Assembly: GCA_038247245.1 (NCBI GenBank)
Contig: JBBRVE010000002.1
Span: 10,173-74,172 of the forward strand
DNA length: 64,000 nucleotides
Source: Bdellovibrionales bacterium
GTDB taxonomy: Bacteria; Pseudomonadota; Alphaproteobacteria; Micavibrionales; UBA2020
Reading direction: 5' to 3'
The notes beneath the pieces were generated by a model. It ran no database searches. It saw only the letters and a program-made list of their open reading frames with translations, and was not told the DNA's origin. Each line of letters opens with the position of its first letter. Positions within the stretch are counted from its first letter, which is position 1. This document shows positions 9,793 to 61,849 of this stretch, in pieces. Made by a program: the position numbers and the translations under genes.

Positions 9793-9856
9793 GCCTGCTA
9801 CGTTGCGGCTTGCGTTCATAAATCATGAGCGAGAAATCACGATCACGAGGCATGCT

Positions 9857-9982: not shown

Positions 9983-10003
9983 AAATGAAAGGCAACCTTT
10001 CTG

Positions 10004-10687: not shown

Positions 10688-10699
10688 GAGTATGTGAAA

Positions 10700-11175: not shown

Positions 11176-11301
11176 CGGGCAGCAAGAAACGGCAAGCAGA
11201 ATTTTATACACAACCTATATACAACTAATTTTGAGAGTATATTATTAAATAGAATCAATGGCTATTTTATAGCCCTCAATCTCGCCGGGGTTACTCCGAT
11301 T

Positions 11302-11592
11302 TTATAATCGAGGCTGTGCTAACGCTTGAGCCCAGATTTTTTCAAATTCTTCCTTGGTGATTTCTTGCGGCTCAAATTGGGGATCTTTCGCGATGTATTC
11401 CAAAGAAGGGTTTGCTTCTAGCCCCAATCCCGCACATAGCAATGAGACTTCAGTTTTACTGCCGTAAGCCATATGCCCGTTGCGAAATACTTCCACTTTG
11501 CGCTGTTCCCAGCGCTGTTCGTTCATTTCACAATACAAGAGCACGGGCTCGTCTAGATGATTATGATGCCAAATGCAGCGCATATAAATCAT
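11302..11592 (-). CDS. small hypothetical protein resembling DUF6881-type immunity-like proteins
   Basis: 96 aa. The pattern C.WHH...DEPV.LY.E.....WE.RKVE.F.NG......EI.KEEFE.IW matches my recollection of a family often encoded next to polymorphic toxins. This is unverified. Confidence 0.55.
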   Translation of the reverse strand: MIYMRCIWHHNHLDEPVLLYCEMNEQRWEQRKVEVFRNGHMAYGSKTEVSLLCAGLGLEANPSLEYIAKDPQFEPQEITKEEFEKIWAQALAQPRL

Positions 11593-11606
11593 GGCTTAAT
11601 CACCAG

Positions 11607-12233
11607 CTAAGCCACCGCCTGCTGCTTCACGCCGACCAGTTCCGAAAAGCGTTCGATATAGAGGCGTTTGGATTCGTTGGCCGATAGGGGTTTTACGCTC
11701 CAGCCTTTTACGGCGGCGGGGGGCGGGCCGAAGAATTCGTTGGCTTCGGCTTCGCTGAAACCGGCCAGCTGTGTTGCCTCCAGCCAGGCGCAGATTTTAT
11801 CGGCGCGCTTGATGAATTTTTTCAGCTGCGGGGTGATGATCGCGGGCATGCCGAAGCGCACATGGATTGCTTCCATCAGCTTGTCTTCAAAGGCGCGGTA
11901 ATTGACGCCCAGCGCGTTCTTGAACGGCGAAATCATGTCGCCGACCACATATTCCGACGCATCATGTAAAAGTGCGGCCAGCAGCCATTGGGGGTCGGAC
12001 GCCGGTTCCAGCGTATTGCAGATCTGCTCCACGATGACGGAATGCTGCGCGACGTTGAACGAATGCTCGCCGGTGGTCTGGCCGTTCCATCTCGCGACTC
12101 TGGAAAGTCCGTGCGCGATGTCCTCGATTTCAATATCCATCGGGGAGGGGTTGATGAGGTCGAGGCGGCGTCCGCTCAACATCCGTTGCCATGCGCGCAT
12201 GTAATTTTTGCCCTTTTTTTTGGTTGCGACCAA
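11607..12233 (-). CDS. HD-domain phosphohydrolase (YfbR-like)
   Basis: Motifs RW.G......FNVAQHS...... and [12 protein letters not shown]. The start may instead be the ATG at 12200. Confidence 0.8.
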
Positions 12234-12404
12234 CCTTGTCAGCCTATAGCCGCCATGATAAACATAAGGCGTTTCAAGGCTTCAAAAACTGCCGCAGATT
12301 CTCTGCTGTCTGGTTATGGGATTAATCCTAATCGACCGCGGCGGATTCGGCTAGAGCCTTTCGGGACATTCAGTTGTTTAGTGCACAGAAAAGGCGAAAA
12401 AATC

Positions 12405-12884
12405 ATGGCAGGCAGCGTTAATAAAGTCATCCTCGTGGGCAACCTCGGCAAAGATCCCGAAATCCGCAGCTTCGCCAATGGCGGCCGCGTCGCCAGCTTC
12501 TCGATTGCCACCTCCGAATCCTGGAAAGACAAGGCCTCGGGCGAGAAGAAAGAGCGCACCGAATGGCACCGCATTTCCGTGCTGAACGACAACCTGGTCG
12601 GCATCGTCGAAAAATACATCAAAAAAGGCGCGAAAGTTTATATCGAAGGCCAGCTGGAAACCCGCAAATGGACCGATAAAGACGGCGCTGAAAAATACAC
12701 GACCGAAGTCGTGCTGCGCCCCTTCCGCGGCGAAATCACCATGCTCGACAGCAAAGGCGGCGGCTCGTCGTTTGAATCGTCGGGCGGCGATTACGGTATG
12801 GAATCGGCAGGTTCCGGCGCGTCGGGCGGCAACTACGCCTCTTCCGGCAAAGCCGACAAGATGGACGACGAGATCCCGTTCTGA
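12405..12884 (+). CDS. ssb: single-stranded DNA-binding protein
   Basis: [21 protein letters not shown]...TEWHRI..., a Gly/Ser-rich linker and the acidic tail DDEIPF. This is the real part of fused ORF 11988..12884. Confidence 0.97.
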
Positions 12885-12901
12885 TTTAAGGGGTCACCGT
12901 T

Positions 12902-13507
12902 TTGGCATTCGCAAGCCTCATCCGCAAATCACTCACGCCGCTGATTTACGCGAATCTCGCGGCGATGGTGATTGCGGGCGGGTGGCTGGCGGCGCAGGGC
13001 TATATCTCGTCCATCTGGCCGGCGATCATCGCGCTGATTTTCTCTCCTCTGATCCTGCCGCTCTATCTTTTTCCTGCCGCGTTTTTTGCAGGCATGATGC
13101 AGGTCGTATCATTGGCCTATCCGCGCGTGTCGAAATTCATGGCACTGGTCAGCACGCTTTACATGATCACCGCTTTTGCGATGTATGCGATGGGCACGAT
13201 TTACCTGATGTACGGCGTGATGGAACGCGAACCGCTGGCGGCATTCTTCTTCGGTGTTGCGGCGGGGGTTGCGCCCTTCGCGATACTGGCGGCAAAAGAC
13301 CGCGACAACCTGTTTTTCACCGGCCTTGTCTGGATGGAAAAGCTTTGTGCGGTGGTGGTCATGCTGCTCGCGCTTTTGAAGGGCATCGCGCCGTGGCACG
13401 GCTTCTGGATTTTCTGGTGCCTGATGGCCGCGATGGTGGGCGCGCAGGCGCTCTACGAAAAAATCTTCATGAAAAAGACCGAAACGGCTGTCACACCGAC
13501 CGTGTGA
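12902..13507 (+). CDS. hypothetical polytopic membrane protein
   Basis: 201 aa and hydrophobic throughout (about 6 predicted helices). The start codon is non-ATG in the ORF track. Confidence 0.6.
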   Translation: MAFASLIRKSLTPLIYANLAAMVIAGGWLAAQGYISSIWPAIIALIFSPLILPLYLFPAAFFAGMMQVVSLAYPRVSKFMALVSTLYMITAFAMYAMGTIYLMYGVMEREPLAAFFFGVAAGVAPFAILAAKDRDNLFFTGLVWMEKLCAVVVMLLALLKGIAPWHGFWIFWCLMAAMVGAQALYEKIFMKKTETAVTPTV

Positions 13508-14905
13508 TTACTTCTTCACCGGCGTCTCGCCATCCTTGAAACGGATGGTGAGGTTCTGTTGTTTGGCGGCATCCGTTGTCGTGCTGACGATATTGCGGTT
13601 TTCGTCGTAAACGACGGCATAGCCGCGTTCCAGCACCCGCTCGAAAGACAGGTTTTCCAGCATTCCCGACAGGTTCTTCAGGTGTCTGGCGCGCTCAGTT
13701 AAAATCTTGTTTTCGGTGTTCGTGAGACGTTCCGCAAAGTTTTTGATATGCCGCTGTGCATCACCGATTTTTTGCACGAGGGCGCGGGGCGAAATCTTGG
13801 CGGCGAGTTCTTTCACGCGCGCGCTGCGTCGTTCCAGCCATGACGCCAAACCACTGTCCAGCCGCTGCCCCAGATGGTCGAGTTTTTGCGACGCATGTTC
13901 CAGCAACCGCTTCGGGTCGCCAAGGCCGCGCCCCAAACCCTGCAACTGCAACGCATGACGCTGCGCGAGGCGTTGCAGAGATACAAACATGCGCTGCTGC
14001 CGTTCCATGACGAAGGATTGCAGCTCCACCCGCACCGGCACGGCCTTTTCGGCGGCGGCGGTCGGGGTGGGGGCGCGCAAATCCGATGCGTAATCGATCA
14101 GCGTTGTATCTGTTTCATGGCCGACGGCGGAAATCAGCGGGATCTTGCTGGCCGCCGCCGCGCGCACGACGATTTCATCGTTGAACGGCATCAGGTCTTC
14201 CAGCGAACCGCCGCCACGCGCCACGATAATCACATCGGGGCGGTCGGGCGATCCTTCGGGAATTGAATTGAAGCCTGCAATCGCCTGCGCCACGGCCTGC
14301 GCCGCGCCTGCACCCTGCACGATGACAGGCCACAACAACACGCGGCGGGGAAAACGCTCGTTCAACCTGTGCATGATATCGCGGATGACGGCGCCGGTGG
14401 GCGATGTCACCACGCCGATCACGTTCGGCAGGAAGGGAATTTTCTTTTTGCGCTCCGCATCGAACAGGCCTTCGGCGGCCAGCTTCTTTTTGCGGTCTTC
14501 CAGCATCTTCAGCAGTGCGCCTTGTCCCGCCAGCTCCATCGTCTCGATGATCAGCTGGTAATTGGAGCGTCCGGGATAGGTCGTCAGGCGGCCGGTGCAG
14601 ACGACATCCATGCCTTCTTCCGGCTTGATGCCCAGTTTCGACAGCGTGCCTTTCCAGCAGATCGCGTCGATCACCGCGCCGTCATCTTTCAAAGCGGAAT
14701 ACAGGTGACCGGATTTCGCGACGGTGACCTTTGAAATTTCGCCGCGCACGCGCACGAAGGAAAACTCCCCCTCGATCACGCGCTTCAGTTTATTGCTAAG
14801 CTCGCTGACTGTAAATTCGGGCGGCGCATTGCTGGCGGGTGCGCCCGGTGCGGGCGGTACCGGCGGCAGGCCGAACGGATCATCGTTGTCGAACAACCCG
14901 GCCAC
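13508..14905 (-). CDS. xseA: exodeoxyribonuclease VII large subunit
   Basis: 465 aa. N-terminal OB-fold (FTVSELS..LK..IE..F..V.V.GEIS), the catalytic region (GVVTSPTGA..RD, ARGGGS.EDL..FN) and a long C-terminal coiled coil. Confidence 0.95.
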   Translation of the reverse strand: MAGLFDNDDPFGLPPVPPAPGAPASNAPPEFTVSELSNKLKRVIEGEFSFVRVRGEISKVTVAKSGHLYSALKDDGAVIDAICWKGTLSKLGIKPEEGMDVVCTGRLTTYPGRSNYQLIIETMELAGQGALLKMLEDRKKKLAAEGLFDAERKKKIPFLPNVIGVVTSPTGAVIRDIMHRLNERFPRRVLLWPVIVQGAGAAQAVAQAIAGFNSIPEGSPDRPDVIIVARGGGSLEDLMPFNDEIVVRAAAASKIPLISAVGHETDTTLIDYASDLRAPTPTAAAEKAVPVRVELQSFVMERQQRMFVSLQRLAQRHALQLQGLGRGLGDPKRLLEHASQKLDHLGQRLDSGLASWLERRSARVKELAAKISPRALVQKIGDAQRHIKNFAERLTNTENKILTERARHLKNLSGMLENLSFERVLERGYAVVYDENRNIVSTTTDAAKQQNLTIRFKDGETPVKK

Positions 14906-20879: not shown

Positions 20880-20956
20880 GCGCCCATAGCTCAACTGGAT
20901 AGAGCATCTGACTACGAATCAGAAGGTTAGGAGTTCGAATCTCTTTGGGCGCACCA
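20880..20956 (+). tRNA. tRNA-Arg (anticodon ACG)
   Basis: Hand-folded cloverleaf: acceptor GCGCCCA/TGGGCGC, D-arm GCTC..GAGC, anticodon stem TCTGA/TCAGA with loop CTACGAA, T-arm AGGAG-TTCGAAT-CTCTT, and an encoded CCA. Confidence 0.95.
20912..20956 (+). repeat. attL core (3' 45 nt of the intact tRNA-Arg)
   Basis: CTACGAATCAGAAGGTTAGGAGTTCGAATCTCTTTGGGCGCACCA, identical to 41603-41647. Confidence 0.9.
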
Positions 20957-21000
20957 TTATTTCAAGCACTTAGGTGCTTTCTCGGTTATCTAATAAGTTA

Positions 21001-21024
21001 CCAAGTGACCTATAAGTGACCCAA
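21001..21024 (+). repeat. 24-bp repeat CCAAGTGACCTATAAGTGACCCAA (two AAGTGACC 8-mers 11 bp apart), attL-proximal copy
   Basis: Exact second copy at 41462-41485. Candidate integrase/excisionase arm-type binding sites. Confidence 0.6.
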
Positions 21025-23836: not shown

Positions 23837-24022
23837 TCACTTGCACGGCTTGCTAGTTGCCGATTGAGCATCCTCAGACTTTTGCGCCCTTGTAGCATCG
23901 TCCTCTTCGATTATGTGCCCGCATCGAACGGTAATCGCAGGTGTAAGAACGACATATGCTCCATACGAAAGCATTGCTGCTGCAATTAATCCGACAAGAG
24001 CGATTTTATACCGTGATTTCAT
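23837..24022 (-). CDS. putative immunity protein of orphan toxin 4 (single-pass membrane peptide)
   Basis: 61 aa with one TM helix (IALVGLIAAAMLSYGAYVVL). Starts 11 nt after the toxin stop. Assigned by position only. Confidence 0.5.
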   Translation of the reverse strand: MKSRYKIALVGLIAAAMLSYGAYVVLTPAITVRCGHIIEEDDATRAQKSEDAQSATSKPCK

Positions 24023-24032
24023 TGACTATCCC

Positions 24033-24773
24033 TTAATTGAGGGGTGGGGGCGTAATTGTTACAGGCACGGGTAGTGATATGGACTTCGACGATGCTGTGA
24101 TGGATTGCCATCCCAGTGGTGCCTCAAGAGTGGCTCCGGAAAAACGGCCTACCTTAGTCCTGATGGTTACATCACCGGGCGAGCCGATCATTGTTATGCT
24201 CTTTCCAGGAAACTTTTTGGCCAGCCAATACGCAAGCCTGCCATTAAAGCTGTTAATGCCTCCCTGCGAGCCGCCACACACAAGAGAATGAATTGGCTTA
24301 TCTGGCGTGTAACCAGCGTCAAGCATATCCTGTCCAACTTCTTCAAACGAAAGCAGTGATCCTCCTTCTTCAGCAGTCGATACCGCGTATGGATCATAAA
24401 GGCCGGAACTTTCGTTCTTTTTACCGTGTGCGCCCAAAGTAAAATAATTGGAATTATTGTATGAATGGTTAGCACGCCAACTCGTATAATTATCATAACT
24501 CCATGCCATTGACATTTTGTTAACATCTACAAGCCCGAGATAATCGCTGTATCTGATCGGGTTCTGACCCACGTAATTGAATAAGTTAGAGCCTCCGTTG
24601 AAACCAATCGGATCACTTTGCACATACCTTCCTACCTTTATGGCAACCTGATTATCCCGTCCGCGCGCCTGAATCTCATGTTCCTGCAAAATGTTGCCGA
24701 TGCCGTCGTAGGCACAGGCTGTCAAGTAAGCGGTGGCGAGTTCTTCGGAAATGGCGCAAATGTCGCGGGGCAA
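24033..24773 (-). CDS. orphan Rhs C-terminal toxin cassette 4
   Basis: Carries the Rhs core-end motif VGRYVQSDPIGFNGGSNLFNYVGQNPIRYSDYLGL, then a unique ~170-aa C-terminal domain. TTG start with GAGGA 6 nt upstream. Confidence 0.8.
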   Translation of the reverse strand: MPRDICAISEELATAYLTACAYDGIGNILQEHEIQARGRDNQVAIKVGRYVQSDPIGFNGGSNLFNYVGQNPIRYSDYLGLVDVNKMSMAWSYDNYTSWRANHSYNNSNYFTLGAHGKKNESSGLYDPYAVSTAEEGGSLLSFEEVGQDMLDAGYTPDKPIHSLVCGGSQGGINSFNGRLAYWLAKKFPGKSITMIGSPGDVTIRTKVGRFSGATLEAPLGWQSITASSKSISLPVPVTITPPPLN

Positions 24774-24803: not shown

Positions 24804-25286
24804 TCAACTTACGCCGCCCCTCGTCGAAGAGGCGAGCCTTAATAGTATTTTGTCAGCTGACTGTTTAAATGAATGATACACCTCCAAACCTTCTCTTCTT
24901 ATAGCAACGTCAAGTTTGGCACTAAGTTGCTGGAGTATATTGCTTGCATCTTCAACTTTTCCTTGACGCTCACAATACAAAGCAAAATATATTTCAAGAG
25001 AGCCTTCTCGCTCAAGATTGGTGTATCCAAGCGCTATAACGTTATCATGTAATTCCTTCACCATCGAGAACTGCGCGTTATGATCGCAAAAGAGCATCAT
25101 TTTCCACTCTGCCACTCTGCGTCTGACCTCCAATTTTGATTCTTCCGACGACGCTAACGCTAGACAAGTTTCTTCCGCCTCATTTAGAGTGGGTCCAATT
25201 TCGGCTATAGGCTTTTCGAACGCACGAGCTGCAGTTGTATCCAATATTCTCGCGATTCTTCTGGATTCATTCTCACTATTTGTCAT
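24804..25286 (-). CDS. putative immunity protein of orphan toxin 3
   Basis: 160-aa, helical-looking cytoplasmic protein starting 9 nt after the toxin stop. Low GC. Assigned by position only. Confidence 0.6.
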   Translation of the reverse strand: MTNSENESRRIARILDTTAARAFEKPIAEIGPTLNEAEETCLALASSEESKLEVRRRVAEWKMMLFCDHNAQFSMVKELHDNVIALGYTNLEREGSLEIYFALYCERQGKVEDASNILQQLSAKLDVAIRREGLEVYHSFKQSADKILLRLASSTRGGVS

Positions 25287-25294
25287 TACGCAAC

Positions 25295-25978
25295 CTATTT
25301 TGGTGAGGAAAAATTCCAGTAGTCACATCTGGCTAAACCGCTGCCACTAAGCGTACTAGAGGGCCATTCTCCCTCTCTGACGCATGCCTGCCTGCAAAGG
25401 TCGCAACGTCCGGAATTAGGAGCGCTACCGGGCAGATCATCTAACGATGTGTCCAGACAGCTGACGTAATGCGCCTGACAGCTTTTACCTTCATCCGATT
25501 TTTTAGGGATGGCTGGGGGCGGCGCAGGGGGCGCATCCCCTCCTGTTCGGGGCGATGACTTGTTGCAAGCAGAATTTGGATCTTTATGACATTGTTCAAT
25601 CTGCTTTTGGATGATGTCGGCAACTATGATACCAGTGATTACGAGCACGCACCCTTCCATAACAAGAGCCACTGCATTCCCTGTCGGGTCAATGTTCATC
25701 ACAGGGTTGACGTTGGCGTAGTTGAAGGTGTTGAGGCCGCCATAGATGCCGATAGGGTCGGATGAGATATAGCGGCCAACAGTTGCCTCTGACGCAGCTT
25801 CGCCGTACCGAGGGGCATTTTCTCTAGACGCTGTAAGAGCTTGCGGATAAAAATTTCTGCCGCGCCTGCCACTTCCGTAAAAAATTTTCTCTGACGCGCT
25901 TTTTTCCGCGCGCAGCGACATTCCGGCGAACATGCCGGGCGGCGGTGCGGATGGCTGCGGGTGCTGGCTAAGAAGCAA
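25295..25978 (-). CDS. orphan Rhs C-terminal toxin cassette 3
   Basis: [35 protein letters not shown], followed by a hydrophobic helix (AVALVMEGCVLVITGIIVADII) and a Cys-rich tail. TTG start with AGGAG 8 nt upstream. Confidence 0.75.
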   Translation of the reverse strand: MLLSQHPQPSAPPPGMFAGMSLRAEKSASEKIFYGSGRRGRNFYPQALTASRENAPRYGEAASEATVGRYISSDPIGIYGGLNTFNYANVNPVMNIDPTGNAVALVMEGCVLVITGIIVADIIQKQIEQCHKDPNSACNKSSPRTGGDAPPAPPPAIPKKSDEGKSCQAHYVSCLDTSLDDLPGSAPNSGRCDLCRQACVREGEWPSSTLSGSGLARCDYWNFSSPK

Positions 25979-33179: not shown

Positions 33180-33560
33180 TCAGGGGACGTCTTTCCAGTA
33201 AAAAAACGGCCCACCAATGTAGAGCAGAAGAATCACAAAATAGAACAAGAGCACCGTATTAATAACCGTATTCGTTCCGCCCTTGAAAAACTTCAATGAC
33301 ACCGAGTAGTAAAAAGCACATCCTAGAAAGTAAACTAGGGGGTATTTCTCAATCGCCCTGCATTGTGCGCTGAAAAAATGAAACACTGGAGGCCAAATCG
33401 ATCCGAGTTCCATAGCTGTCTCGTAGAGCAGCCGAAAGGCGGATCGACTGAATACGAAGAAGATAATTGCAATGGCAATGAAACCTAAATTGAATCTTTC
33501 AATAAAGTGACCGAATTCAAACCCCTTTAGAAAATTTATTATTCTGCGCTGCATCCGCAT
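33180..33560 (-). CDS. putative immunity protein of orphan toxin 2 (multi-pass membrane protein)
   Basis: 126 aa with about 4 hydrophobic helices. Its start overlaps the toxin 3' end by 22 nt. Low GC. Confidence 0.6.
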   Translation of the reverse strand: MRMQRRIINFLKGFEFGHFIERFNLGFIAIAIIFFVFSRSAFRLLYETAMELGSIWPPVFHFFSAQCRAIEKYPLVYFLGCAFYYSVSLKFFKGGTNTVINTVLLFYFVILLLYIGGPFFYWKDVP

Positions 33561-34132
33561 GAACCCTCCTTGTCTAAAAGCGGGTCCAATTTGCTGTAAA
33601 TATCTGTCATGATGCCGTACTTAGCGCGCAACGCTTGAGTAGCTTCGTGGATAAATAACCTTGCTGCTTCCTCTCTACTCCAGCCAAGAGACCTGACGCT
33701 CATGCCCATAGTTTGGTCCGGTTGGCCCGGAAACCCATACTGCGGAAGAAACCTAGGTTCCCAATTAGTGTGACCAGCCCCCCCATTTGCAGTGAAGAAG
33801 GTATTATCCTCCCAAAATGAATGGGGATAATAGCCAAAGTTAAAGCTCACTACATTCGTAAAAAACATATCCTCTAAGGTTTGATTGTCCTTACGAAGTT
33901 GTTTCCTAAACCAGTCGCCGAGGGCGCTACATTTCAGCCTATTGTAGGCTTCTTCGATAATTTCATCTTTGGTAGCAGGGTCGCCCACGCCGGAGTTCAC
34001 GTCTATGAATTTTAAACCTAGTGGGTCAATCGCATTGACCGGATTCTGCCCAACATAGCCGAAGGTGTTGAGGCCGCCAGCTATTCCGATTGGGTCGCTG
34101 CTGATATAGCGGCCTACATTCAGAAGTTCCAA
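33539..34132 (-). CDS. orphan Rhs C-terminal toxin cassette 2
   Basis: Begins [40 protein letters not shown], then a unique ~150-aa domain. TTG start directly after the upstream stop, with GGAG 4 nt upstream. Confidence 0.8.
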   Translation of the reverse strand: MELLNVGRYISSDPIGIAGGLNTFGYVGQNPVNAIDPLGLKFIDVNSGVGDPATKDEIIEEAYNRLKCSALGDWFRKQLRKDNQTLEDMFFTNVVSFNFGYYPHSFWEDNTFFTANGGAGHTNWEPRFLPQYGFPGQPDQTMGMSVRSLGWSREEAARLFIHEATQALRAKYGIMTDIYSKLDPLLDKEGSCGCSAE

Positions 34133-34133
34133 T

Positions 34134-34574
34134 TTACTCCAACCCCTTAGAGTGCTGGCGGTTCTTTTCTATTGCTTTAAAATGTTTCTCGGAACGCTTT
34201 AGGTCATTAATAAACGCTACAGCTACCGTAGAGATATGAGCTTTGGCATTCTTGGCGCAGCCTTTATCAATCATCTGAAGTAGCACCTCGCTGTCTTGAG
34301 TGAGGAATGGGCGTTTAACTTGCCTGTCAAACACATTGTAGCCGGAAAAATAACCTAAAACCCAAGCGGCATTCTCCTTTTCAACGGCAGAGCCAGTGCG
34401 CCGATGGGTCAACCATTCCGAGCAGAGCCGGTTACTTGCATTTGGATCAATTATCTCGGGGTGTGAATTAAAATATCCATCCTGCTTCGGTGAAGCACTC
34501 ACGCCTTCCCCTTGAAAAAAAGCAACCATCGCCAAGACTGATAAAAGCCCGAGTATGTTCGTCTTAATTTCCAT
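34134..34574 (-). CDS. putative immunity protein of orphan toxin 1 (signal peptide, periplasmic)
   Basis: Start placed at MEIKTNILGLLSVLAMVAFFQGEGVSA. 146 aa. Lies immediately downstream of the toxin ORF (the extended ORF overlaps it). Confidence 0.6.
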   Translation of the reverse strand: MEIKTNILGLLSVLAMVAFFQGEGVSASPKQDGYFNSHPEIIDPNASNRLCSEWLTHRRTGSAVEKENAAWVLGYFSGYNVFDRQVKRPFLTQDSEVLLQMIDKGCAKNAKAHISTVAVAFINDLKRSEKHFKAIEKNRQHSKGLE

Positions 34575-34588
34575 CAAGCGTTTCCTCT

Positions 34589-35275
34589 TTACTGCTTTGG
34601 CGGCGTACAAATCCCGCCAGCCTCCGGGACACATTGATAATCATTTTTAAGAGCTTTAAGAAAATATGGCGTGACGAATGGTGATACCGCTGGATCAACA
34701 ACAAAAGGTAGTGGGCAAACGGGCATTGGGCCGTTAGCAGTGCCTTTCATTTCCAAGCCCAGCATATCGAGCGGTCCGCCCGGGGCAACGAAACTGCAAG
34801 CTGTTCCTTGATCGTACACGCAGTCGTATTGCCCCCACTTCACCACAGGAGATTTGGGATCATCTGGATCAGCAGGAGCGTAAGTTATCCCGCCGAAATT
34901 ATAATCAGGTTGGTAAATTCCTAACTGTGTAAGAGCGGGGTCTTTCTCAGTAACTTCGGGAGCATGTGCAGTGCAAACTAAATACTTATCAGATGGGCAA
35001 AGTCCCATAAAGTCAAAAAACCCAACAGGATTAGCTTTTACGTAGAGGAAAGTGTTGAGGCCGCCAGTGAGTCCGATAGGGTCGGACGATATATAGCGGC
35101 CTATATTTATGGCAACCTTGTTATCGCGCTCGGGTTGCTGATACGTATGGTCGGGACAAAGGTTGCCGCTGTCGTCGTACTCGCCTTGCAGCAACTGGGC
35201 AACCGCGTCGTAGTTATATGCCGTCGCGCTGCCGGGGGCGTGTCGGTCAGAAAAATCGTGAAGATCGCGCGGCAA
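34589..35275 (-). CDS. orphan Rhs C-terminal toxin cassette 1
   Basis: [35 protein letters not shown], followed by a Cys-rich ~160-aa domain. TTG start with AAGGA 6 nt upstream. The 5' leader is homologous to that of cassette 4. Confidence 0.8.
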
Positions 35276-35338: not shown

Positions 35339-35578
35339 TTATTCTTTGCGTCGCAACTCCCACAAACGCCCTTTCAGAGCGGCAACAGCTTTTTCAAAAT
35401 CTGTAAGTGCAAACTTCCAAGTACCGCCATCCTTGGGACTAAATATTTCAATCTGCATTTCGTCAAAGCCTTCTTCTTGAGTCATGACGCATACTATCTG
35501 ATCGTCAAAATATAGGTCGCCAACAAGGTCCTCGTGGTCGGGATCACTACCTACAGTAATGCGGAAACGCGGGTTCAT
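35339..35578 (-). CDS. putative cognate immunity protein of the full-length Rhs toxin
   Basis: 79-aa acidic protein. Its ATG overlaps the rhs stop (ATGA). Confidence 0.65.
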   Translation of the reverse strand: MNPRFRITVGSDPDHEDLVGDLYFDDQIVCVMTQEEGFDEMQIEIFSPKDGGTWKFALTDFEKAVAALKGRLWELRRKE

Positions 35579-38500
35579 GGTTCTAAGAATCCCATGAAAT
35601 TACCTCCGGCATCATATCGCGCGCCGCCGCCAAGCGAACCGCCATAATAATCTGTTCCGCCAAACCTGTTACTACTTGTCCTCTTCACATTTCCCAATAT
35701 ATCGTTAAGAAGCTCTTGGCCTTTAGAATTCTTGGCGGCGACGTTTCCTGTCGCCTCTGGGAATACTGTTCCTTCACGACGCCCATGCTTTTCTAATGCA
35801 CGACCTGCTTTCGTTAACTGTCCACCTTTATCTATAGCTTGCCCTGCTTTGCGAAGCGCCTCTATATCACCGTGGCAATTCTGTGCGCTCTTGCGGAACG
35901 CGCCCTTAAGAATTCCACCTGCTCCGCTAACAACTCCTGCTCCAGCTGCCGCTTCTATGCCTGTGGTGAGTGGGCCCCATGGATTTATCTGATATTCAAT
36001 ATCCCCGGTCACATCTGGCGCGTTGGCGTAGTCCGCATAGAAAATAATACCAGCGGCGAAGGCAAGGGGGATGAAGAAAAATTCCCCGGTCGGGTCAACC
36101 CAGTTCACCGGGTTCTGCCCGACATAGCCGTAGGTGTTGAGGCCCCCGGCAAGACCGATGGGGTCAGAGGATATATAGCGGCCAAGCGTCGGATCATAGT
36201 CGCGCATGTAGTTGTAGTGGAGGCCGGTTTCGGCATCCGCGAACTGGCCAGGGAAGCGCAAGTTGCTCGCTGCCGCTCCCGACGTTGCATAGGTTTCGCC
36301 GAACGGCTCCTGCTGGCGGTCCCAGACGACGGCTTGCGTCGCGTCGGTCATTTTCTGGGGCGTGTTGAGGTGGTCGGGGTGGACGTAATAGATCGTGCCC
36401 GCCGCCTCGATCTGCGCCAGCGGTATGTTGCCGAGCCAGATGTATTCGCGCAGGTTGGTGCCGCTGCCATCTGATTCAGCTATCAGGCGACCGACTTCGT
36501 CGTAGTGAAAGTGGACGGTCGTCGTGCCGTCGGATTTGCTGACGCGCTGGCCAAGCGCATTGACCTTGTAGGTCGTGGTGGTGCTGCCCACCAATACGGA
36601 TTCAAGTCGGTTGCGCCCACCATAGGTGAAACTCACGTCGGGGTCGGTGGCGCGGTTGTCTGTCGCGGTATTGCCCGATGCCGTATAGGTGAAGCTGCGC
36701 GTGTTCGTGCCGTCGTTGATGCTGGAAAGCTTGTTGCTGCCGCCCGGCAGGGTCGAGGTCTGCGTGACGCCGCTTTTCACGCGCGTCAGGCGGTTGGCGT
36801 TGAAGTCATAGGTGTAATCGACCGTTCCGTAAGCGCCGACTGCCTGGCTGAGCCGGTTCAGCGTATCGAGCGTAAAAGTCTGGTTACGGCCAGATGCAAG
36901 GTTGTCGGTGATCGCCGTAATGTTGCCTGCGTTGTCATAGGCGATATCGAGGTCCTGCACATGCGTCGCTCCGTCCTCCGTCACGATATCCGTCAGCCAG
37001 TAGTTCTGGTCGAATGTCCGCGCCAGTGTGAGGCTGTTGCCGTAGGTTAGTCCTTTCAGCGGCCCGAAAGGCTCATACGTGATGCTTGATGCCAGCGTCG
37101 CGGGCGTGCCCGTGCTGGTCGCCACCGTGATGATCTTGCCGTGACTGTCATAGGTATAAGTCACAGTGCGCCCAGACGGATAGGTGACTTGGGTCACGCG
37201 GTTGGCGACATCATAGGCATAGGCCGTCGTGTAGGTCTGCGCGCCGATAGTGCGGACGCTTTGCGTCACGTTGCCCACATCGTCATAGGTGAGCGCCGTC
37301 GTGCCGCTTTCATCGGTGATGCCCGTCAGCCGCCCGACGCCCTTGTTGCCGCCCGATGTACTGTCATAGGTGAAGGCCATGTTTTCGCCGGAATAAGCCG
37401 GGAAGGTGACGGTCAGGGGACGGTTGAGCGCGTCGAAGGTACGGTTGGTAACGACGCCACGCGCATCGGTCTGGCTGGTGACGTTTTCCGCGAGGTCGTA
37501 GTTATAGACGGTCGTGCCGGTGTCGGGGCTGGTGGCCTGAATCACGCGGCTGAAGCCGTCATAAATGTAAGTGGTGGATAGTGTGCGGAAGTCGCTCTGG
37601 CTCGTCGCGTTGTCGCGGGAGTCGTAGCCGGTCGATGCCACTTTCGTCAGCGGATCGGTAACGGTTATCAGGCGGTCGAGCGCGTCGAACGCCATGTTTG
37701 TGGCATTGCTGCGCGCGTCCGTTGCCCGCGTACGGTTGCTGTTGGCGTCGTAGAGATAAGCGGTCGCCTGCGGCGAAGACGCGCCTATGTTTTTCTTGAG
37801 CCGCGAAATCTCGTCGAATTCGCGTGCCTGTTTCGCCCGCAGGGCTGGGGTCGCGTTTTTAACGTCTTCCTGAATAATGTTTCCGTCGGCATCCAGCGTG
37901 TATTCGATGCGCTCGCCCGCTTCGTTCTCGACCGCCGTCAGGCGTTGCGCATTGTCGTAGGTGTAGGTGAGTGTGGTCGCATCGGGCAGCGTGATCAGCG
38001 TCACCAGACCCGCCAGGTCGTAATCAATCGTCGTGACCTGATTACCCGCCGTCGCATTCACCGTGTAGGTCTTCAGCCGCCCCAGATCGTCATAGGTGAG
38101 ATCGGTCACAAGGCTGTTTGGATCGGTGAAGGACAGCGGCCTGCCCATGTTGTCGTAGGAAGTGATCGACGTGACCTGGCTGAGCGCGTTCGTGACGGTC
38201 GCAAGGTTTTTTTCCGTGCTGGTGTAGGTATAGGTCGTCGTGTCCGTCAGATCGGTGCGCGGGCCATCCGCCGTCAGCACGTTTCCGAGCGCGTCATAGG
38301 TATTGGTCCAGGTGCGGTTATTTCCCGTGGTGGTGTAGGGAACGGTCTGGGTTTGGCTGTCGGTCTGCTTGTAAGTGAGCCTGTTGCCAGCGGCGTCATA
38401 GGTCATGTCCACGGTCAGCCCGGTACGCGTGACCTGCGTCGGCAGACGCAGAGTCGTGTCCCAAGTCGTGCCGATGGTACGCGCCTGCGCGCCGCCGAAG

Positions 38501-39972
38501 GCTTCGGTGCGGCTCGTTTCCAGCCCCGCCGAGGAAATGGTGTGTTTGGTGACGTTGCCCTTCCAGTCAGTGTAATTCGCGGCGAAACCGTTGGCGTTGT
38601 AGGTGAACTGGGAATTTGCGGCGGGGACCGATCCCACGGCAAGGCGGTCGATGCGCGTGACTTTCGGCATGCTCTGGAGCGTTGAAAACGTGTATTTGTC
38701 CTGGCCGCCGAGCGGGCCGGTGACGGTTCTGGTGCCATCGACGTTGTAGGTGATGGTGGTCAGGCCTGCGCCGCCTGCGTGCTGGCTGGAAGTTGCCCGC
38801 CCGGTCGTGCTGTCATATGCCCATGTGGCGTAGCGGTTGCCCAGCTCGTCCGTGATGCCTGTCAGGTAGGTGGGGAAATTCGTGTCTTCGTAAAGATACG
38901 TGATGACCGGATTATCCGTTAGGCTGGGCGTGCTGTCGGGATACGTGACGGTCGATAAAATTTTCGTCAGCGCAGTGGTGCTCGGATAAGCATTGACGTA
39001 GCCGTACGTGTAAACCTCGCCGTTCGGGTCGGTCACCGTGTCCACCAAGCCGTCGCCATTGTAGGTGAGCGTCAGCGAGCGGCCCAGATTATCGGCAACC
39101 GTCGTGAGCTTGCCGGAGCTATAGGTGAGGGTCTGCGTGTATCCGTCAAGAAAGGCAATCGACTGCAATACGCCGGTGCTGTTGTAGGTCTCAACCGTTT
39201 TGTCGCCATCCGTCAGCAGCCAGTTGCTACCGGACTGGACGAGTTTGAGGACCACGTCGGTGTCGGAACTCCACACGCCACCCGACTTGTTAAAAATAGC
39301 CCGCTGTCCGTCGCCGCGCCACGCGCCCCATTTGGTAGAGCCGCTGTTTTCGAGAAAGCGCTCGTAAATGTTCCGCCAGCCTGGCCCCATCACGCCGTTC
39401 GTCAGGCGGATCTGGCTGTTATAGGTCCGCGCGAAAATGAGCGGGTGCGCGCCGGAGCCTTGGATATCGATCTTGGTCTCGAATTTATTGCCTGTGCTGA
39501 CGGTAATCGGATTGCCGCATTGGGGTTTCGAGACCCAGGGCGCATCTCCGCTCACGCCCTCTCCCAATGCAGGATCTGGGCACGCCGCGCCAAATGTCTT
39601 ACGCCCCGCTGAAACCGAGCAGCCGGATGTTGACCACGCATTTTCATCAAGGCCTGACGGGCAGCCCGACCGGATACTGAGGCTGCGGGGCAAAGTCAGG
39701 TAAAAATATTTGCAGATCCACATCGGGTGGCTGTCGCCGAACACGTCCACGCGAGATCCCATCACGAGGTCTCCGTAGGGTGATGCGTAATACGCTTTGA
39801 TGCCATCGCAGACCAATTGCGCCGTCTGGCACGAATAGCCGGGTCCCGCCCCTTGGCATCCGGAAATCAGTTGAGGGCTCGTTTCCCAGTAATACGTCTG
39901 GGCTTGCGAGGGGGACGATATGAATAGAAAGGCGAGCACAACGCCAAGCGTCATTCGGTTGAAATGTTTCAT
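35575..39972 (-). CDS. Rhs/YD-repeat polymorphic toxin with Sec signal peptide and variable C-terminal toxin domain
   Basis: 1465 aa. Signal peptide MKHFNRMTLGVVLAFLFISSPSQA, a Cys-rich ~140-aa region, the shell start GNPITVSTGNKFE, dozens of YD/RHS repeats (Y.YD..G....) and the core end [38 protein letters not shown], followed by a ~190-aa tail. Confidence 0.95.
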   Translation of the reverse strand: MKHFNRMTLGVVLAFLFISSPSQAQTYYWETSPQLISGCQGAGPGYSCQTAQLVCDGIKAYYASPYGDLVMGSRVDVFGDSHPMWICKYFYLTLPRSLSIRSGCPSGLDENAWSTSGCSVSAGRKTFGAACPDPALGEGVSGDAPWVSKPQCGNPITVSTGNKFETKIDIQGSGAHPLIFARTYNSQIRLTNGVMGPGWRNIYERFLENSGSTKWGAWRGDGQRAIFNKSGGVWSSDTDVVLKLVQSGSNWLLTDGDKTVETYNSTGVLQSIAFLDGYTQTLTYSSGKLTTVADNLGRSLTLTYNGDGLVDTVTDPNGEVYTYGYVNAYPSTTALTKILSTVTYPDSTPSLTDNPVITYLYEDTNFPTYLTGITDELGNRYATWAYDSTTGRATSSQHAGGAGLTTITYNVDGTRTVTGPLGGQDKYTFSTLQSMPKVTRIDRLAVGSVPAANSQFTYNANGFAANYTDWKGNVTKHTISSAGLETSRTEAFGGAQARTIGTTWDTTLRLPTQVTRTGLTVDMTYDAAGNRLTYKQTDSQTQTVPYTTTGNNRTWTNTYDALGNVLTADGPRTDLTDTTTYTYTSTEKNLATVTNALSQVTSITSYDNMGRPLSFTDPNSLVTDLTYDDLGRLKTYTVNATAGNQVTTIDYDLAGLVTLITLPDATTLTYTYDNAQRLTAVENEAGERIEYTLDADGNIIQEDVKNATPALRAKQAREFDEISRLKKNIGASSPQATAYLYDANSNRTRATDARSNATNMAFDALDRLITVTDPLTKVASTGYDSRDNATSQSDFRTLSTTYIYDGFSRVIQATSPDTGTTVYNYDLAENVTSQTDARGVVTNRTFDALNRPLTVTFPAYSGENMAFTYDSTSGGNKGVGRLTGITDESGTTALTYDDVGNVTQSVRTIGAQTYTTAYAYDVANRVTQVTYPSGRTVTYTYDSHGKIITVATSTGTPATLASSITYEPFGPLKGLTYGNSLTLARTFDQNYWLTDIVTEDGATHVQDLDIAYDNAGNITAITDNLASGRNQTFTLDTLNRLSQAVGAYGTVDYTYDFNANRLTRVKSGVTQTSTLPGGSNKLSSINDGTNTRSFTYTASGNTATDNRATDPDVSFTYGGRNRLESVLVGSTTTTYKVNALGQRVSKSDGTTTVHFHYDEVGRLIAESDGSGTNLREYIWLGNIPLAQIEAAGTIYYVHPDHLNTPQKMTDATQAVVWDRQQEPFGETYATSGAAASNLRFPGQFADAETGLHYNYMRDYDPTLGRYISSDPIGLAGGLNTYGYVGQNPVNWVDPTGEFFFIPLAFAAGIIFYADYANAPDVTGDIEYQINPWGPLTTGIEAAAGAGVVSGAGGILKGAFRKSAQNCHGDIEALRKAGQAIDKGGQLTKAGRALEKHGRREGTVFPEATGNVAAKNSKGQELLNDILGNVKRTSSNRFGGTDYYGGSLGGGARYDAGGNFMGFLEP

Positions 39973-40148: not shown

Positions 40149-41459
40149 CTAAACGTAATATTTTATAGCCGTGTCGTCCTTTGTCATTGATTTCTTATCA
40201 AGAGAAATCACATTTGAATTATCTGAAGAAATATATTGCATGATACGTTCTGACCATTTCAAAAGCGCTTGTTCCTTTTCTTCACCATATTCGTATCTGT
40301 TATAAACAGCTGCAACACCGCTGATAATTCCATTCGAGTGATTGAGGATTTTCTCGATCACATGCGGCGCGACGCGCAGGCTTGCCATGTGGCTGGCGGC
40401 GCTGCGGCGGAGGTCGTGAACGCGCCATTCTGGCAACGCATCAAGGTCTTGGCGGGTTTTGAGGCTTTCGCCTTGTTTGATTGCGCTTTCGTGCCTTTCA
40501 TTCCTTATTCTTTGAACACGCTTATCAAGCGCATTCTTTCCTTGGGTAAATCCCGAATAAGGGGTTGTGCCTGTCGTCGTAAAAACGAGGTCGCCCATTT
40601 CAGGCGCTTTTTCTAGCAGGCTTAAAGCGAGCGCGGAAAGCGGCACATCATGCGCACGGTCGGTTTTGGTATTTTCACGCGGCAAGTGCCAAATCTTATT
40701 TTTGAAATCGATGTCTTTCCATTTAAGCGTGGCGACTTCATTGCGCCTTTGCGCAGTAACAAGCGCAAACTGGATGAAGATGCCATAGGGATAGCCTATT
40801 TCTTCGCAGGCCTCCCAGACGTCTTTAATTTCCAAGGCCGTCAAAACGCGGTCGCGTGAATTATCAGGCGTCTGCTTTGTAACGCCGTCGGCAGGCGAAA
40901 AATGGAGTATGTCGCGCTGCACGCACCACCTAAAAAATTTCTTGATATGGGCGAGGGCGCGATTGGCGGCGATGGGTGCGCCGCGATCCGTAATACGGTC
41001 GAGAATTTTAACGATATTAGCTTTCGTTACCTCATGAACCGGCAACGTACCGATTAGAGGTAGAACGTCATTATCAAAGATGCGCCTTTTTTCTTTCCAA
41101 TGCTTGTTGTGCTGCTTTGCGTATTTCTCGATGAACTGGTCAAAGGCCGAAGAAACGATATAGGCGCTTCTGGCTTTACGCTTTTGCTCGGTGGGGTCGA
41201 TATTGTCGGCAATTTTGGCTAGATGCTTGATGGCGAGGTCACGGGCTGTGTCCAGCGCGATCTTGCCGTATTGCCCGACCGTATGGATGCGCTTGCGACC
41301 GCGATGGCGATACCAGACGATAAAGGCTTTCTTGCCGGACGGATAAATGCGGCAGCCAAAACTTGGTATCTGCGTATCCCAACGGATATCCCATGCGCCG
41401 CTTTCACCGCCTGCATAGGTGAAACTGTCGATATCTCGTTTTGTTAGCTTCTGCGCCAT
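40149..41459 (-). CDS. int: P4-type tyrosine integrase with N-terminal arm-binding (DUF4102-like) domain
   Basis: Motifs GCRIYPSGKKAFIVWYRHRGRKR..TVG, TAQRRNEV, HDLRRSAASHMA and the tail LNHS...ISGVAAVYNRYEY. ATG at 41459; the ORF-track TTG is at 41465. Confidence 0.93.
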   Translation of the reverse strand: MAQKLTKRDIDSFTYAGGESGAWDIRWDTQIPSFGCRIYPSGKKAFIVWYRHRGRKRIHTVGQYGKIALDTARDLAIKHLAKIADNIDPTEQKRKARSAYIVSSAFDQFIEKYAKQHNKHWKEKRRIFDNDVLPLIGTLPVHEVTKANIVKILDRITDRGAPIAANRALAHIKKFFRWCVQRDILHFSPADGVTKQTPDNSRDRVLTALEIKDVWEACEEIGYPYGIFIQFALVTAQRRNEVATLKWKDIDFKNKIWHLPRENTKTDRAHDVPLSALALSLLEKAPEMGDLVFTTTGTTPYSGFTQGKNALDKRVQRIRNERHESAIKQGESLKTRQDLDALPEWRVHDLRRSAASHMASLRVAPHVIEKILNHSNGIISGVAAVYNRYEYGEEKEQALLKWSERIMQYISSDNSNVISLDKKSMTKDDTAIKYYV

Positions 41460-41461
41460 TT

Positions 41462-41485
41462 CCAAGTGACCTATAAGTGACCCAA
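41462..41485 (+). repeat. 24-bp repeat CCAAGTGACCTATAAGTGACCCAA, attR-proximal copy
   Basis: Exact copy of 21001-21024. Abuts the integrase start and lies 118 bp from the attR core. Confidence 0.6.
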
Positions 41486-41602: not shown

Positions 41603-41647
41603 CTACGAATCAGAAGGTTAGGAGTTCGAATCTCTTTGGGCGCACCA
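41603..41647 (+). repeat. attR core: displaced 3' 45 nt of tRNA-Arg (non-functional fragment)
   Basis: Identical to 20912-20956. There is no 5' tRNA half upstream. Confidence 0.9.
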
Positions 41648-41756
41648 CTTTTCCTCCTCCCATGAAATGAAACTGAAATGAAACGGCACCTGCGGGCTTC
41701 TCTTGCGCGGCACTTTTCGTTATGGCAATCATAGGGTTCACAACAGGGGAAACATC

Positions 41757-59955: not shown

Positions 59956-61662
59956 TTAGAACTTGCCAGTGATCGTCGCGAACAGGCGGGGGTTGTCGTC
60001 GCCTTCCGTCTGCACATCGGCGGTCATCGGCACGGCAACTTCGAGCGTACCCGCAAAGCGGTCGTCGAGGTTAACGCGCGCGCCACCGCCAGCCGACACG
60101 ATGGAACGGCGGCGGTCGCGGGGAACAGCGTTGTCGGGGTCATGCACTTCGCCGCCATCGACGAAGGTGTAAAGCTGCAGCAGGTTGACGGGCAGCGCGA
60201 CCGGATTGTTGGCGCGCAGCTCGAGCCGCGCGGCATAGCCGTCTTCGCCCGTGATTTCCGAGTTGTCGTAGGCGCTGCCGTAATTGACGCCGCCCACGCC
60301 GAATTCCTCCGATGCCAGAAGCGTCTGCGAAGAAAGCTGGCCGGTTGCGGACAGGAAGGCCTCGAAAATATTCGTGATGCGCTGTACGCGGCTGACTTCC
60401 GCGTTCATCTTGAAGAACTGCGGATCGCCAAGCGCGCGGGTCAGGCGTGCATCGCCCTTGTCGCTCGCGTTCAGGAAGCTGATGCCCTTGCTGGCTTCGC
60501 CAGACAGGGTGTTGACGCCAAGCCAGCTGTCGGTGAACTGGAACGTCCCGCCGGCGCGCAGGACGCGCAGACGGTCTTCGGCGCCGCCGCCCGGGATGTT
60601 GTCGGTACGCTCGGAATTCAGATAGTTGAATTTCAGCGTGCCATACAGGTTCATGTTGCGCGAACGGATGAAGGGGTGCGTGAGGTCGAGATTGACGGCC
60701 TTCGCCTTGCCGTTCACATCGAACGGCGTCAGCGTGAAGCCGGGATCGGTGTCGGTGATGCTGATGCTGGTCGACAGTTTCGTGCCTTCATGGTTCAGCG
60801 GCTGCTGCCAGGTAAACGCGCCAAAGGCCAGTTCACGCTCCGACCACATGCCGTCGGGAGTCAGCACGCCCTGAAAATTCAGGCCTTCATAGAGGCCAAG
60901 GGCGTTGTTGAAACGCACGCCCGCGTTCAGCTGCAACGGGCCGAGGAAGCGCGTACCGCGGTTATCGACCTGAAAGAACGCATCGAAGGGTTTCTGGTCA
61001 ACAACCAGCGTAATGTCGGTCGCGCCGGGTGTTTTCGACGGCGACAACACCGCGCGCGCATTCATGCCGGCAAGGTCGTTGATAAGAAGAACGTAACGCT
61101 CGAGTGCTTTGGAATTCAGAGGTTTCTGCGCGCGCAATTTCGCGGCATAACCCTCCAGCCAGCCGGGATTGGCGCGGGATGATCCCTGAATGGTGACGTT
61201 TTCGACAAAGCCTTCGACCACGCGCAGCTTCACATGGCCGCCATCGATGGTTTGCGGGGGCACGACAACCTGCGTCAGGATGTAGCCGTCGTTGCGGTAT
61301 TTGGCGGTCAGGCGGTCGGCGATGCCAAACACATCGGCGAGCGTGATGGTCGTGCCGATCATGCTGTCATAGACGCTGTGGATCTGCACATCGTCGTAAA
61401 CGGTCTGGCCTTCGATAGCGACGGATTTCAGGACCAGTTTTACTTTTTCCGCGCCTGCGGGGGCGGTGATGGCGCCACCGGTCTGGATCTTGGTGCCGAC
61501 TTCGGGCAGCGTTTGTGTTTGCATCGGGGCGATCTGGCCGCCGGCGCGCGAACCTTCCGCCGATGACGGCACGGCCTGTGCGTAGGCTTGCGATGCGAAC
61601 AGCGTCGCGGCTGTCATCATGGAAAAAAGAAGCTTCGGAAACTTGATCATGTCTGTGCCCAA
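59956..61662 (-). CDS. ShlB/FhaC/HecB-family outer-membrane transporter (TpsB, POTRA plus beta-barrel)
   Basis: 568 aa. Signal peptide, POTRA region (V.IEG.TVY....I...Y...IG..IT.AD.....RLT..YRNDGYIL..V..P.Q.I..G.V.L.V.EG) and a C-terminal barrel ending ATITGKF. Confidence 0.92.
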   Translation of the reverse strand: MGTDMIKFPKLLFSMMTAATLFASQAYAQAVPSSAEGSRAGGQIAPMQTQTLPEVGTKIQTGGAITAPAGAEKVKLVLKSVAIEGQTVYDDVQIHSVYDSMIGTTITLADVFGIADRLTAKYRNDGYILTQVVVPPQTIDGGHVKLRVVEGFVENVTIQGSSRANPGWLEGYAAKLRAQKPLNSKALERYVLLINDLAGMNARAVLSPSKTPGATDITLVVDQKPFDAFFQVDNRGTRFLGPLQLNAGVRFNNALGLYEGLNFQGVLTPDGMWSERELAFGAFTWQQPLNHEGTKLSTSISITDTDPGFTLTPFDVNGKAKAVNLDLTHPFIRSRNMNLYGTLKFNYLNSERTDNIPGGGAEDRLRVLRAGGTFQFTDSWLGVNTLSGEASKGISFLNASDKGDARLTRALGDPQFFKMNAEVSRVQRITNIFEAFLSATGQLSSQTLLASEEFGVGGVNYGSAYDNSEITGEDGYAARLELRANNPVALPVNLLQLYTFVDGGEVHDPDNAVPRDRRRSIVSAGGGARVNLDDRFAGTLEVAVPMTADVQTEGDDNPRLFATITGKF

Positions 61663-61784
61663 TTTTTTAGATGGCGGCGATAAATATGCCGCGGCAGGCT
61701 GAATGCCCGTTCTGGTGTCATTATAAAGAAAAGAACATTTAATTCAAAAAGTTAATCGGGTTTCCGGAAGCAACCATAAGAAAA

Positions 61785-61817
61785 CCCCCCGTTGCGTGAT
61801 TATTCTGCAACGGGGGG
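61785..61817 (-). terminator. rho-independent terminator after the beta-helix gene
   Basis: CCCCCCGTTGC / GCAACGGGGGG 11-bp stem, followed on the minus strand by TTTTCTT. Confidence 0.8.
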
Positions 61818-61849
61818 TTATGGATAGGATTGGTTAACGTCGATGCCGC

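Follow-up and report, generated by a model that had tools for sequence, protein, structure and literature searches.

A predicted Sec-exported Rhs toxin with a cysteine-rich N-terminal domain on a tRNA-Arg integrative mobilizable island

Rhs toxins with Sec signals are common in environmental genomes and almost unstudied experimentally. A trafficking class of polymorphic toxins described as 'T2SS/Sec-dependent: signal peptide ... repeats: RHS' (T2SS, type II secretion system) was listed by Zhang et al. in 2012, who also noted lineage-specific domains after the signal peptide (PMC3482391). In Xanthomonas perforans, the 1398-aa (amino acids) Rhs bacteriocin Bcn-A is active in culture supernatant, and this activity is abolished in a mutant of xpsD, which encodes the T2SS secretin (PMC7259588). 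Linkage to gspG has been reported for two families of Rhs toxins, the largest one of Xanthomonas (180 members) and one of Ralstonia (56), and T2SS export is predicted for these gspG-linked families (preprint 10.1101/2025.05.08.652813). The locus considered here lies in a window of 64 kb, by which the whole stretch of DNA that was analysed is meant (contig JBBRVE010000002.1), and consists of a full-length rhs gene (35575..39972, minus strand; 1465 aa from ATG) with its immunity gene. Its product is very probably a Sec-exported YD-shell polymorphic toxin that does not depend on a type VI secretion system (T6SS) and is carried on a tRNA-Arg integrative mobilizable island of a diderm bacterium.

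Such loci raise the general question of how a folded Rhs shell gets out of a diderm cell, and by what means the cargo reaches the inside of the target, without a T6SS. The present locus does not overturn the current understanding, because the architecture, the T6SS independence and the link to T2SS are already in the literature. What it adds is modest, namely, an unannotated family of Cys-rich N-terminal domains, an unannotated toxin/immunity family resembling that of PABL017 (see below), and the island setting with four orphan tips.

Architecture of the Rhs protein

The ATG of the rhs open reading frame (ORF) is the most upstream start possible after the preceding stop, and thus the ORF has no hidden upstream extension. 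Pfam identifies DUF6531, 11 RHS_repeat stretches and the RHS core in the product. The locus as a whole has what characterizes Rhs/YD-repeat polymorphic toxins, i.e., a YD shell, an autoprotease motif at the core end, and a variable tip accompanied by an immunity gene and orphan tips. All parts of the gene described below are on the minus strand.

The N-terminus reads MKHFNRMTLGVVLAFLFISSPSQA followed by QTYYWE. On direct reading, residues 1-24 (39901..39972) have the three-part layout of a Sec-type signal peptide for signal peptidase I, namely, an n-region MKHFNR with the charged residues K2 and R6, a hydrophobic core of 12 residues (MTLGVVLAFLFI), and a c-region SSPSQA with S at -3 and A at -1. 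Cleavage is predicted between SQA and QT. A crude rule-based predictor also calls the N-terminus signal-peptide-like, and puts the cleavage between ISS and PSQA. Direct reading of the N-terminus reveals neither a twin-arginine motif nor a lipobox (no Cys occurs before residue 39), and the prePAAR motif AARxxDxxxH is likewise absent. The layout is retained in the relatives designated P0001-P0004 and P0008, despite divergent sequence.

The predicted signal peptide is followed by a Cys-rich N-domain (aa 25-152, 39517..39900) with cysteines at positions 39, 48, 55, 87, 104, 118, 131, and 152. The clustering is extreme, because the remaining 1313 residues of the protein hold just one Cys (C1366). 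Eight cysteines clustered in this way would suit an oxidising compartment. A sequence-only reading of this DNA had proposed a typical cleavable signal, a Cys-rich region of about 140 aa with at least 10 cysteines, and a shell-opening motif, GNPITVSTGNKFE. The n/h/c layout with its S-Q-A site bears out the first of these as a prediction, and the third is borne out by the position of DUF6531 (see below), while the Cys-rich region is in fact 128 aa long and has 8 cysteines.

In alignments, the cysteines of the N-domain are conserved in P0001-P0005, P0007, and P0008. A local hidden Markov model (HMM) detects the domain in seven close relatives and, weakly, in about 12 more distant ones, always immediately before DUF6531. 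No Pfam or NCBIfam family matches aa 25-160, even at E ≤ 1. An exhaustive phmmer search with the same residues against 1.8 billion representatives returned one spurious repetitive ORF, and therefore the family is taken to be small or divergent. A scan of a genome collection with aa 1-238 gave only a distant cyanobacterial DUF6531 match. Word-indexed searches using either the first 165 residues or the N-domain alignment as query found no match, but they are uninformative, for they also missed P0001, which is 94% identical.

The AlphaFold2 (AF2) model of the N-terminal region, built on a 19-sequence alignment, can be trusted only in the core of the N-domain, with predicted local distance difference test (pLDDT) values of 72-92 there, at a mean pLDDT of 59.7. 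The modelled core consists of a single helix packed against a small antiparallel sheet. Comparison of this moderate-confidence model with the PDB by Foldseek gave nothing below E = 0.3 (best E = 0.32).

The conserved core of the protein starts with the DUF6531 plug domain (aa 153-227, 39292..39516; Pfam E = 2e-15), the first residues of which are GNPITVSTGNKFE. The DUF6531 start aligns to the core start of Rhs structures from T6SS, i.e., residues 283-335 of Photorhabdus Rhs1 (7PQ5), and also with residues 14-69 of the core construct in 8QJB. Because of this alignment, the 152 residues preceding the core hold the position that is occupied by PAAR or by VgrG-binding modules in T6SS effectors. 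The core continues with the YD-repeat shell (aa ~228-1232, 36277..39291), in which PF05593 is matched in 11 stretches (E = 4.5e-44); relatives of the protein carry the TEN_YD-shell domain. The RHS-associated core end (aa 1233-1296, 36085..36276) resembles the solved RhsA, Tse5, Tse15, Tre23, and TcC proteins (best E = 1.8e-18, 7Q97). It contains the bipartite aspartyl autoprotease motif DPIG(1270)-x19-DPTG(1293).

Between the cleavage site and the toxin lies a linker of about 75 aa (aa 1297-1372, 35857..36084), in which a hydropathy scan shows one hydrophobic stretch (FFFIPLAFAAGIIFYADYA) and one Gly/Ala-rich stretch. The linker has no homologues in the C-terminal search, where matches begin only at aa ~1367. 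A role of the linker as a membrane-entry helper is speculative.

The C-terminal toxin domain, or tip (aa ~1373-1465, ~95 aa, 35578..35856), is defined by tblastn and profile homology. It has the conserved motifs L-T-x-A-G-R-A-L-x-K-H-G ... G-F-L-E-P, and its tblastn matches include the C-terminus of a HINT-domain toxin from Leptospira (59.6% identity, E = 4e-17). Further matches are to a Protochlamydia Rhs protein, a Caballeronia ORF, and a tip in an orphan CdiA-CT (C-terminal toxin) array of Duffyella. A profile of six tip sequences (A3) has a sole match in the PDB, to residues 6-95 of the 96 residues of 6D7Y_A (E = 1.5e-6). This structure is the CdiA-CT of Pseudomonas aeruginosa PABL017, a tRNase of the BECR fold with H3372 as the published catalytic histidine (PMC9086364). 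On this profile match, the tip is homologous to the PABL017 tRNase. Its invariant K-H (H1396) aligns to an S-K-H of 6D7Y, and H1396 is a candidate for the catalytic histidine. The single-sequence AF2 model of the tip has a pLDDT of 39. Neither the tip nor the immunity proteins nor the orphan tips have a Pfam or NCBIfam family.

The start of a 79-aa immunity gene (35339..35578, minus strand; ORF listing) overlaps the rhs stop. Its product is homologous to those of small genes that lie directly downstream of the tips in Caballeronia, Duffyella, and Protochlamydia, and, judged from these arrangements, the immunity gene is co-conserved with the tip. A cytoplasmic target of the toxin fits, because the immunity protein has no signal peptide. 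The family comprising the tip and an immunity protein of ~75 aa (loci L009-L013) is common to Rhs, HINT, and CdiA toxins. It is found in Alpha-, Beta-, and Gammaproteobacteria, Chlamydiota, and Leptospira.

Relatives and secretion genes

A search with the full-length protein yielded 1391 homologues (E ≤ 1e-10), of which the nearest come from metagenomes (P0001, 94% identity; P0002, 83%; P0003, 62%). Among the best 120, a simple rule set assigns a signal-peptide-like start to 85, while 27 appear N-terminally truncated. Hydrophobic stretches lie deeper inside several of the remaining eight, and their starts may have been called wrongly. The precomputed Pfam lists contain PAAR for none of the 120, and the additional N-terminal domains that they do contain are LRR, NHL, PPC, and similar extracellular modules. 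The Rhs protein had at first been regarded as an anomaly for a Gram-negative toxin. With a signal-peptide-like start in 85 of the 120 relatives and PAAR in none, this view does not hold, and its premise is unsupported because of the class listed in 2012, the T2SS dependence of Bcn-A activity, and the existence of the gspG-linked families.

No T6SS genes are present in the contexts of the five relatives examined, and integrase, recombinase, or relaxase genes are close by in three of the five (P0001, P0003, and P0008). At the P0008 locus, a gene for a 133-aa GspG-family protein (PF08334; L006 9430-9831) is located directly upstream of the signal-peptide rhs gene, and the rhs locus sits within a mobile element, which also carries genes for an integrase, a TrwC relaxase, and a coupling protein. 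The GspG-family protein has a non-canonical N-terminus, without the G|FTLIE prepilin site. By analogy, the arrangement of gspG and rhs at this locus echoes the linkage reported for Xanthomonas and Ralstonia.

P0003 (L002/L003) has the same signal peptide and N-domain as the window protein, but a Tlde1-like (L,D-transpeptidase exchange) tip. Tlde1-like toxins act in the periplasm and are otherwise known from T6SS effectors. Therefore, it appears that one Sec-type chassis bears both periplasmic and cytoplasmic toxins.

Among cultured bacteria, a signal peptide followed by a Cys-rich region and DUF6531 is found in an Rhs protein encoded on a Methylobacter plasmid and in one encoded on a Ralstonia solanacearum megaplasmid. 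There is no demonstrable homology between the N-domain of the window protein and those of the Methylobacter and Ralstonia proteins. The Methylobacter gene, which is unannotated, spans the record start of the plasmid of Methylobacter sp. YRD-M1 (NZ_CP091425.1; L008 about 11690-13523). Its product has a signal peptide and then two tandem Cys-rich modules before DUF6531. Just upstream is a second DUF6531 gene, which is N-terminally truncated (9554-11539).

P0001 is deposited, on a contig of 7.9 kb, in a metagenome-assembled genome (MAG) of a 'Chloroflexota bacterium', whereas the flanking genes in the window cluster with proteins from Alphaproteobacteria MAGs. The mismatch suggests that either a mobile element was mis-binned or horizontal transfer took place recently. 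The cluster mates of the bacterioferritin are Alphaproteobacteria by name. The host is a diderm, as the window encodes a ShlB/POTRA outer-membrane transporter, and it is probably alphaproteobacterial.

Pfam scans of all substantial ORFs in the window detected no Hcp, VgrG, PAAR, Tss, DUF1795 (Eag), DUF4123, or DUF2169. The families returned were UvrA, SSB, XseA, transporters, a TpsB-type transporter, and island genes. The absence of T6SS genes from the window and from the island, stated in the sequence-only reading, is thereby confirmed. The HMM check on the Cys-rich domain also agrees with that reading, since residues 1-152 have no PAAR, DUF4150, or other adaptor match at E ≤ 1. Neither a T2SSG family, nor a prepilin motif, nor a homologue of the GspG-like protein of the P0008 locus was found in the window. 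Pfam detected no SpvB, TcdB, or TcaC regions and no TcA partner in the Rhs protein or the window.

A likely two-partner (type Vb) pair is located outside the island at 59956-63940. It consists of a transporter of the ShlB/FhaC family with a POTRA domain (59956-61662, minus strand; Pfam) and, directly upstream of it, a large right-handed beta-helix protein (61850-63940; a 696-aa ORF that is listed as complete). The transporter was considered as an exporter of the Rhs protein and rejected, for it has a beta-helix partner of its own and is encoded 18 kb away from the island, and no TPS domain is present in the Rhs protein.

Proposed delivery and its alternatives

The above features may be combined into a scheme for the action of the toxin. 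The Rhs protein would be exported by SecYEG and cleaved after Ala24, and the disulfides of the N-domain would form in the periplasm. The protein would then cleave itself, with the tip staying enclosed in the shell. Passage through the outer membrane would most likely be by a T2SS encoded elsewhere, as for Bcn-A of Xanthomonas. Given the overall scheme, the T2SS step is put forward tentatively, by analogy, at a little under an even chance. Outside the cell, the variable Cys-rich N-domain would most likely act as a target-binding (or secretion-recognition) module. Finally, the tRNase tip would enter the cytoplasm of a competitor, while the immunity protein would protect kin.

Several points weigh against this scheme. 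A folded Rhs cocoon would be a very large T2SS substrate, and the evidence from Bcn-A is the loss of activity in a secretin mutant, which is not direct proof of crossing through the secretin. No T2SS components or gspG-like genes were found within the window, and the survey of secretion genes, for T2SS and T6SS alike, covers these 64 kb. The tip, if it acts in the cytoplasm, needs import across two target membranes, for which the sequence identifies no pathway. The function proposed for the N-domain is deduced solely from its position, cysteines, and variability, and its AF2 model is of moderate confidence. The signal peptide is called by direct reading together with crude rules.

A bolder version of the scheme may be considered. 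The eight-Cys N-domain would be the founder of an undescribed, fast-evolving family of extracellular targeting domains, and the soluble Rhs cocoon of ~150 kDa would be a diffusible, colicin-like bacteriocin. Bound to a receptor, the encapsulated tRNase would cross both membranes of the target without a contact-dependent machine, with the linker (aa 1297-1372) as the membrane-entry element. This version is regarded as unlikely, though conceivable.

Alternatively, the Rhs protein may stay attached to the surface or the envelope after Sec export and act only on contact, like Gram-positive WapA or bacterial teneurin-like proteins, with the Cys-rich N-domain serving as an anchor. Lineage-specific N-domains that follow signal peptides have been proposed as anchors (PMC3482391), and teneurin-like YD proteins are predicted to be displayed on the surface after Sec export (PMC13018210). 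The lack of a linked T2SS gene within the window is also in keeping with surface anchoring. However, the Rhs protein has no lipobox and no cell-wall-binding, S-layer, or beta-barrel domain, and a diderm must still move the 150-kDa shell across its outer membrane. Moreover, the only tested Gram-negative precedents are active in cell-free supernatant. Considering both sides, surface anchoring is decidedly improbable.

It is very unlikely that the periplasmic protein is released with no secretin devoted to it, whether in outer-membrane vesicles or through a lysis-type route (type 10-like, holin/endolysin) of the kind used for Tc toxins. The scans of the island gave no holin, endolysin, or spanin family, Tc components have no Sec signals, unlike the window protein, and the direct evidence from the nearest functional analogue, Bcn-A, favours T2SS. 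On the other side stand the requirement of the Tc ABC toxins, which share the Rhs shell, for a type 10 secretion system (PMC13018210) and the lack of any secretion gene linked to the rhs locus.

That the protein is a T6SS cargo, its N-terminal hydrophobic stretch being not a cleaved signal but a helix of the membrane or prePAAR-like type, and a T6SS together with a fitting adaptor being encoded elsewhere in the genome, is hardly credible, even though T6SS effectors make up most of the Gram-negative Rhs toxins that have been studied by experiment (PMC8636562) and the inspection was limited to the window, because no PAAR, prePAAR, VgrG-binding domain, Eag, DUF4123, or DUF2169 is present in the protein or the window, the N-terminus is a canonical n/h/c one with S-x-A at -3/-1 followed by eight conserved Cys, PAAR is missing from all 120 nearest relatives, and five related loci are without T6SS genes.

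Sec-type export independent of T6SS, which the sequence-only reading had also proposed, is favoured by the predicted signal peptide, the cysteines, and the absence of an adaptor. The accompanying statement that the further route is unknown fares less well, in view of the T2SS precedents of Bcn-A and the gspG families.

Island context and comparison with known systems

The rhs locus lies inside an island of ~20.7 kb (20880-41652). At one end is a tRNA-Arg(ACG) gene (20880-20956, plus strand; ARAGORN; Rfam 70.5 bits), the integration site on the attL side, and at the other a 50-nt direct repeat of the 3' half of this tRNA (attR, repeat D3; 41603-41652, plus strand), with 96% identity to 20912-20961. 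A second repeat of 27 nt, TT(A/T)CCAAGTGACCTATAAGTGACCCAA, flanks the att sites (20998-21024 and 41459-41485). With its tandem AAGTGACC, it is probably an arm-type binding site of the integrase. The island integrase, a tyrosine recombinase with Phage_integrase, Phage_int_M, and Arm-DNA-bind_3 (Pfam), is encoded directly upstream of rhs (40149..41465, minus strand). The other island genes encode a MobA/MobL relaxase, a 995-aa primase, a second tyrosine recombinase, and helix-turn-helix proteins. Because of this gene content, the island is taken to be an integrative mobilizable element. In a promoter scan, the counts were not above the shuffled expectation, with a single 10/12 match at 40187-40160, upstream of rhs.

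Four orphan rhs-CT modules on the minus strand accompany the full-length gene, and all of them bear the Rhs-associated core end (TIGR03696, Rhs_assc_core). Module 1 (34589..35275; E = 1.1e-8; repeat D1), in which the core end is joined to a different tip, is followed by a candidate immunity gene (34134..34634, minus strand) without a known family. An internal signal-peptide-like stretch (MEIKTNILGLLSVLAMVAFFQGEGVSA) in this ORF suggests a periplasmic immunity protein. Module 2 (33539..34132; E = 1.1e-10; repeat D1) has a candidate immunity ORF (33180..33560, minus strand) whose translation is hydrophobic and multi-pass. Module 3 (25295..25978; E = 8e-10; repeat D1) has a candidate immunity gene at 24804-25286, and module 4 (24033..24773; E = 1.4e-8; repeat D2) is followed by a 61-aa membrane ORF (about 23837-24022). 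Together, these orphan toxin/immunity cassettes offer a stock for the exchange of tips. With one full-length toxin and four spare tips on one island, the locus is a clean and compact example that could serve as a test case.

Elsewhere in the window, a stretch at 10004-11600 has a low GC content (0.45-0.50, vs ~0.57-0.60 around it). Within it are an ORF of 227 aa (10004-10687), the start of which resembles a signal peptide, and a gene for a DUF6881 protein (11302-11592, minus strand; E = 2e-28). This stretch, which adjoins ssb, may be a small foreign insert.

Compared with known systems, the window protein shares its core organization with the T6SS Rhs effectors, namely, P. protegens RhsA (7Q97), Photorhabdus Rhs1/Tre23 (7PQ5), Tse5, and Tse15. 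Both have the DUF6531 core start, the YD shell, and a DPxG...DPxG autoprotease followed by a C-terminal toxin, the encapsulation of which is presumed in the window protein. The difference lies before the core, where the T6SS effectors have ~280-340 residues of PAAR or VgrG-binding sequence in place of the 152 residues of the window protein. The tip family is also related to CdiA-CT PABL017 (6D7Y), and it occurs in orphan CdiA-CT arrays as well, but the identity is low and the delivery module of the window toxin is Rhs, not CdiA.

Bacillus subtilis WapA and the bacterial teneurin-like proteins are Sec-exported YD-shell toxins with immunity genes, and the window protein is predicted to be one as well. 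However, their anchors (cell-wall-binding, S-layer, and lipoprotein modules) were not found in the window protein, the host of which has an outer membrane. The class of Zhang et al., which is defined by comparative genomics alone, shares with the window locus the signal peptide, the lineage-specific N-domain, the RHS repeats, the variable toxin, the downstream immunity gene, and the orphan cassettes, while the eight-Cys N-domain of the window protein belongs to no named family.

Bcn-A is likened to the window protein here by its published description, not by sequence comparison, and the window locus differs from Bcn-A and the gspG-linked families in having neither a gspG-like gene nor accessory ORFs of the Bcn-A type. 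Nevertheless, Bcn-A and the families XRhs F VIII (Xanthomonas) and RRhs F II (Ralstonia) are, like the window protein, Gram-negative and ~1400 aa long, and they work without T6SS, as the window protein very probably does, and the Rhs protein of the Ralstonia megaplasmid has the same layout as the window protein, i.e., a signal peptide, a Cys-rich region, and DUF6531.

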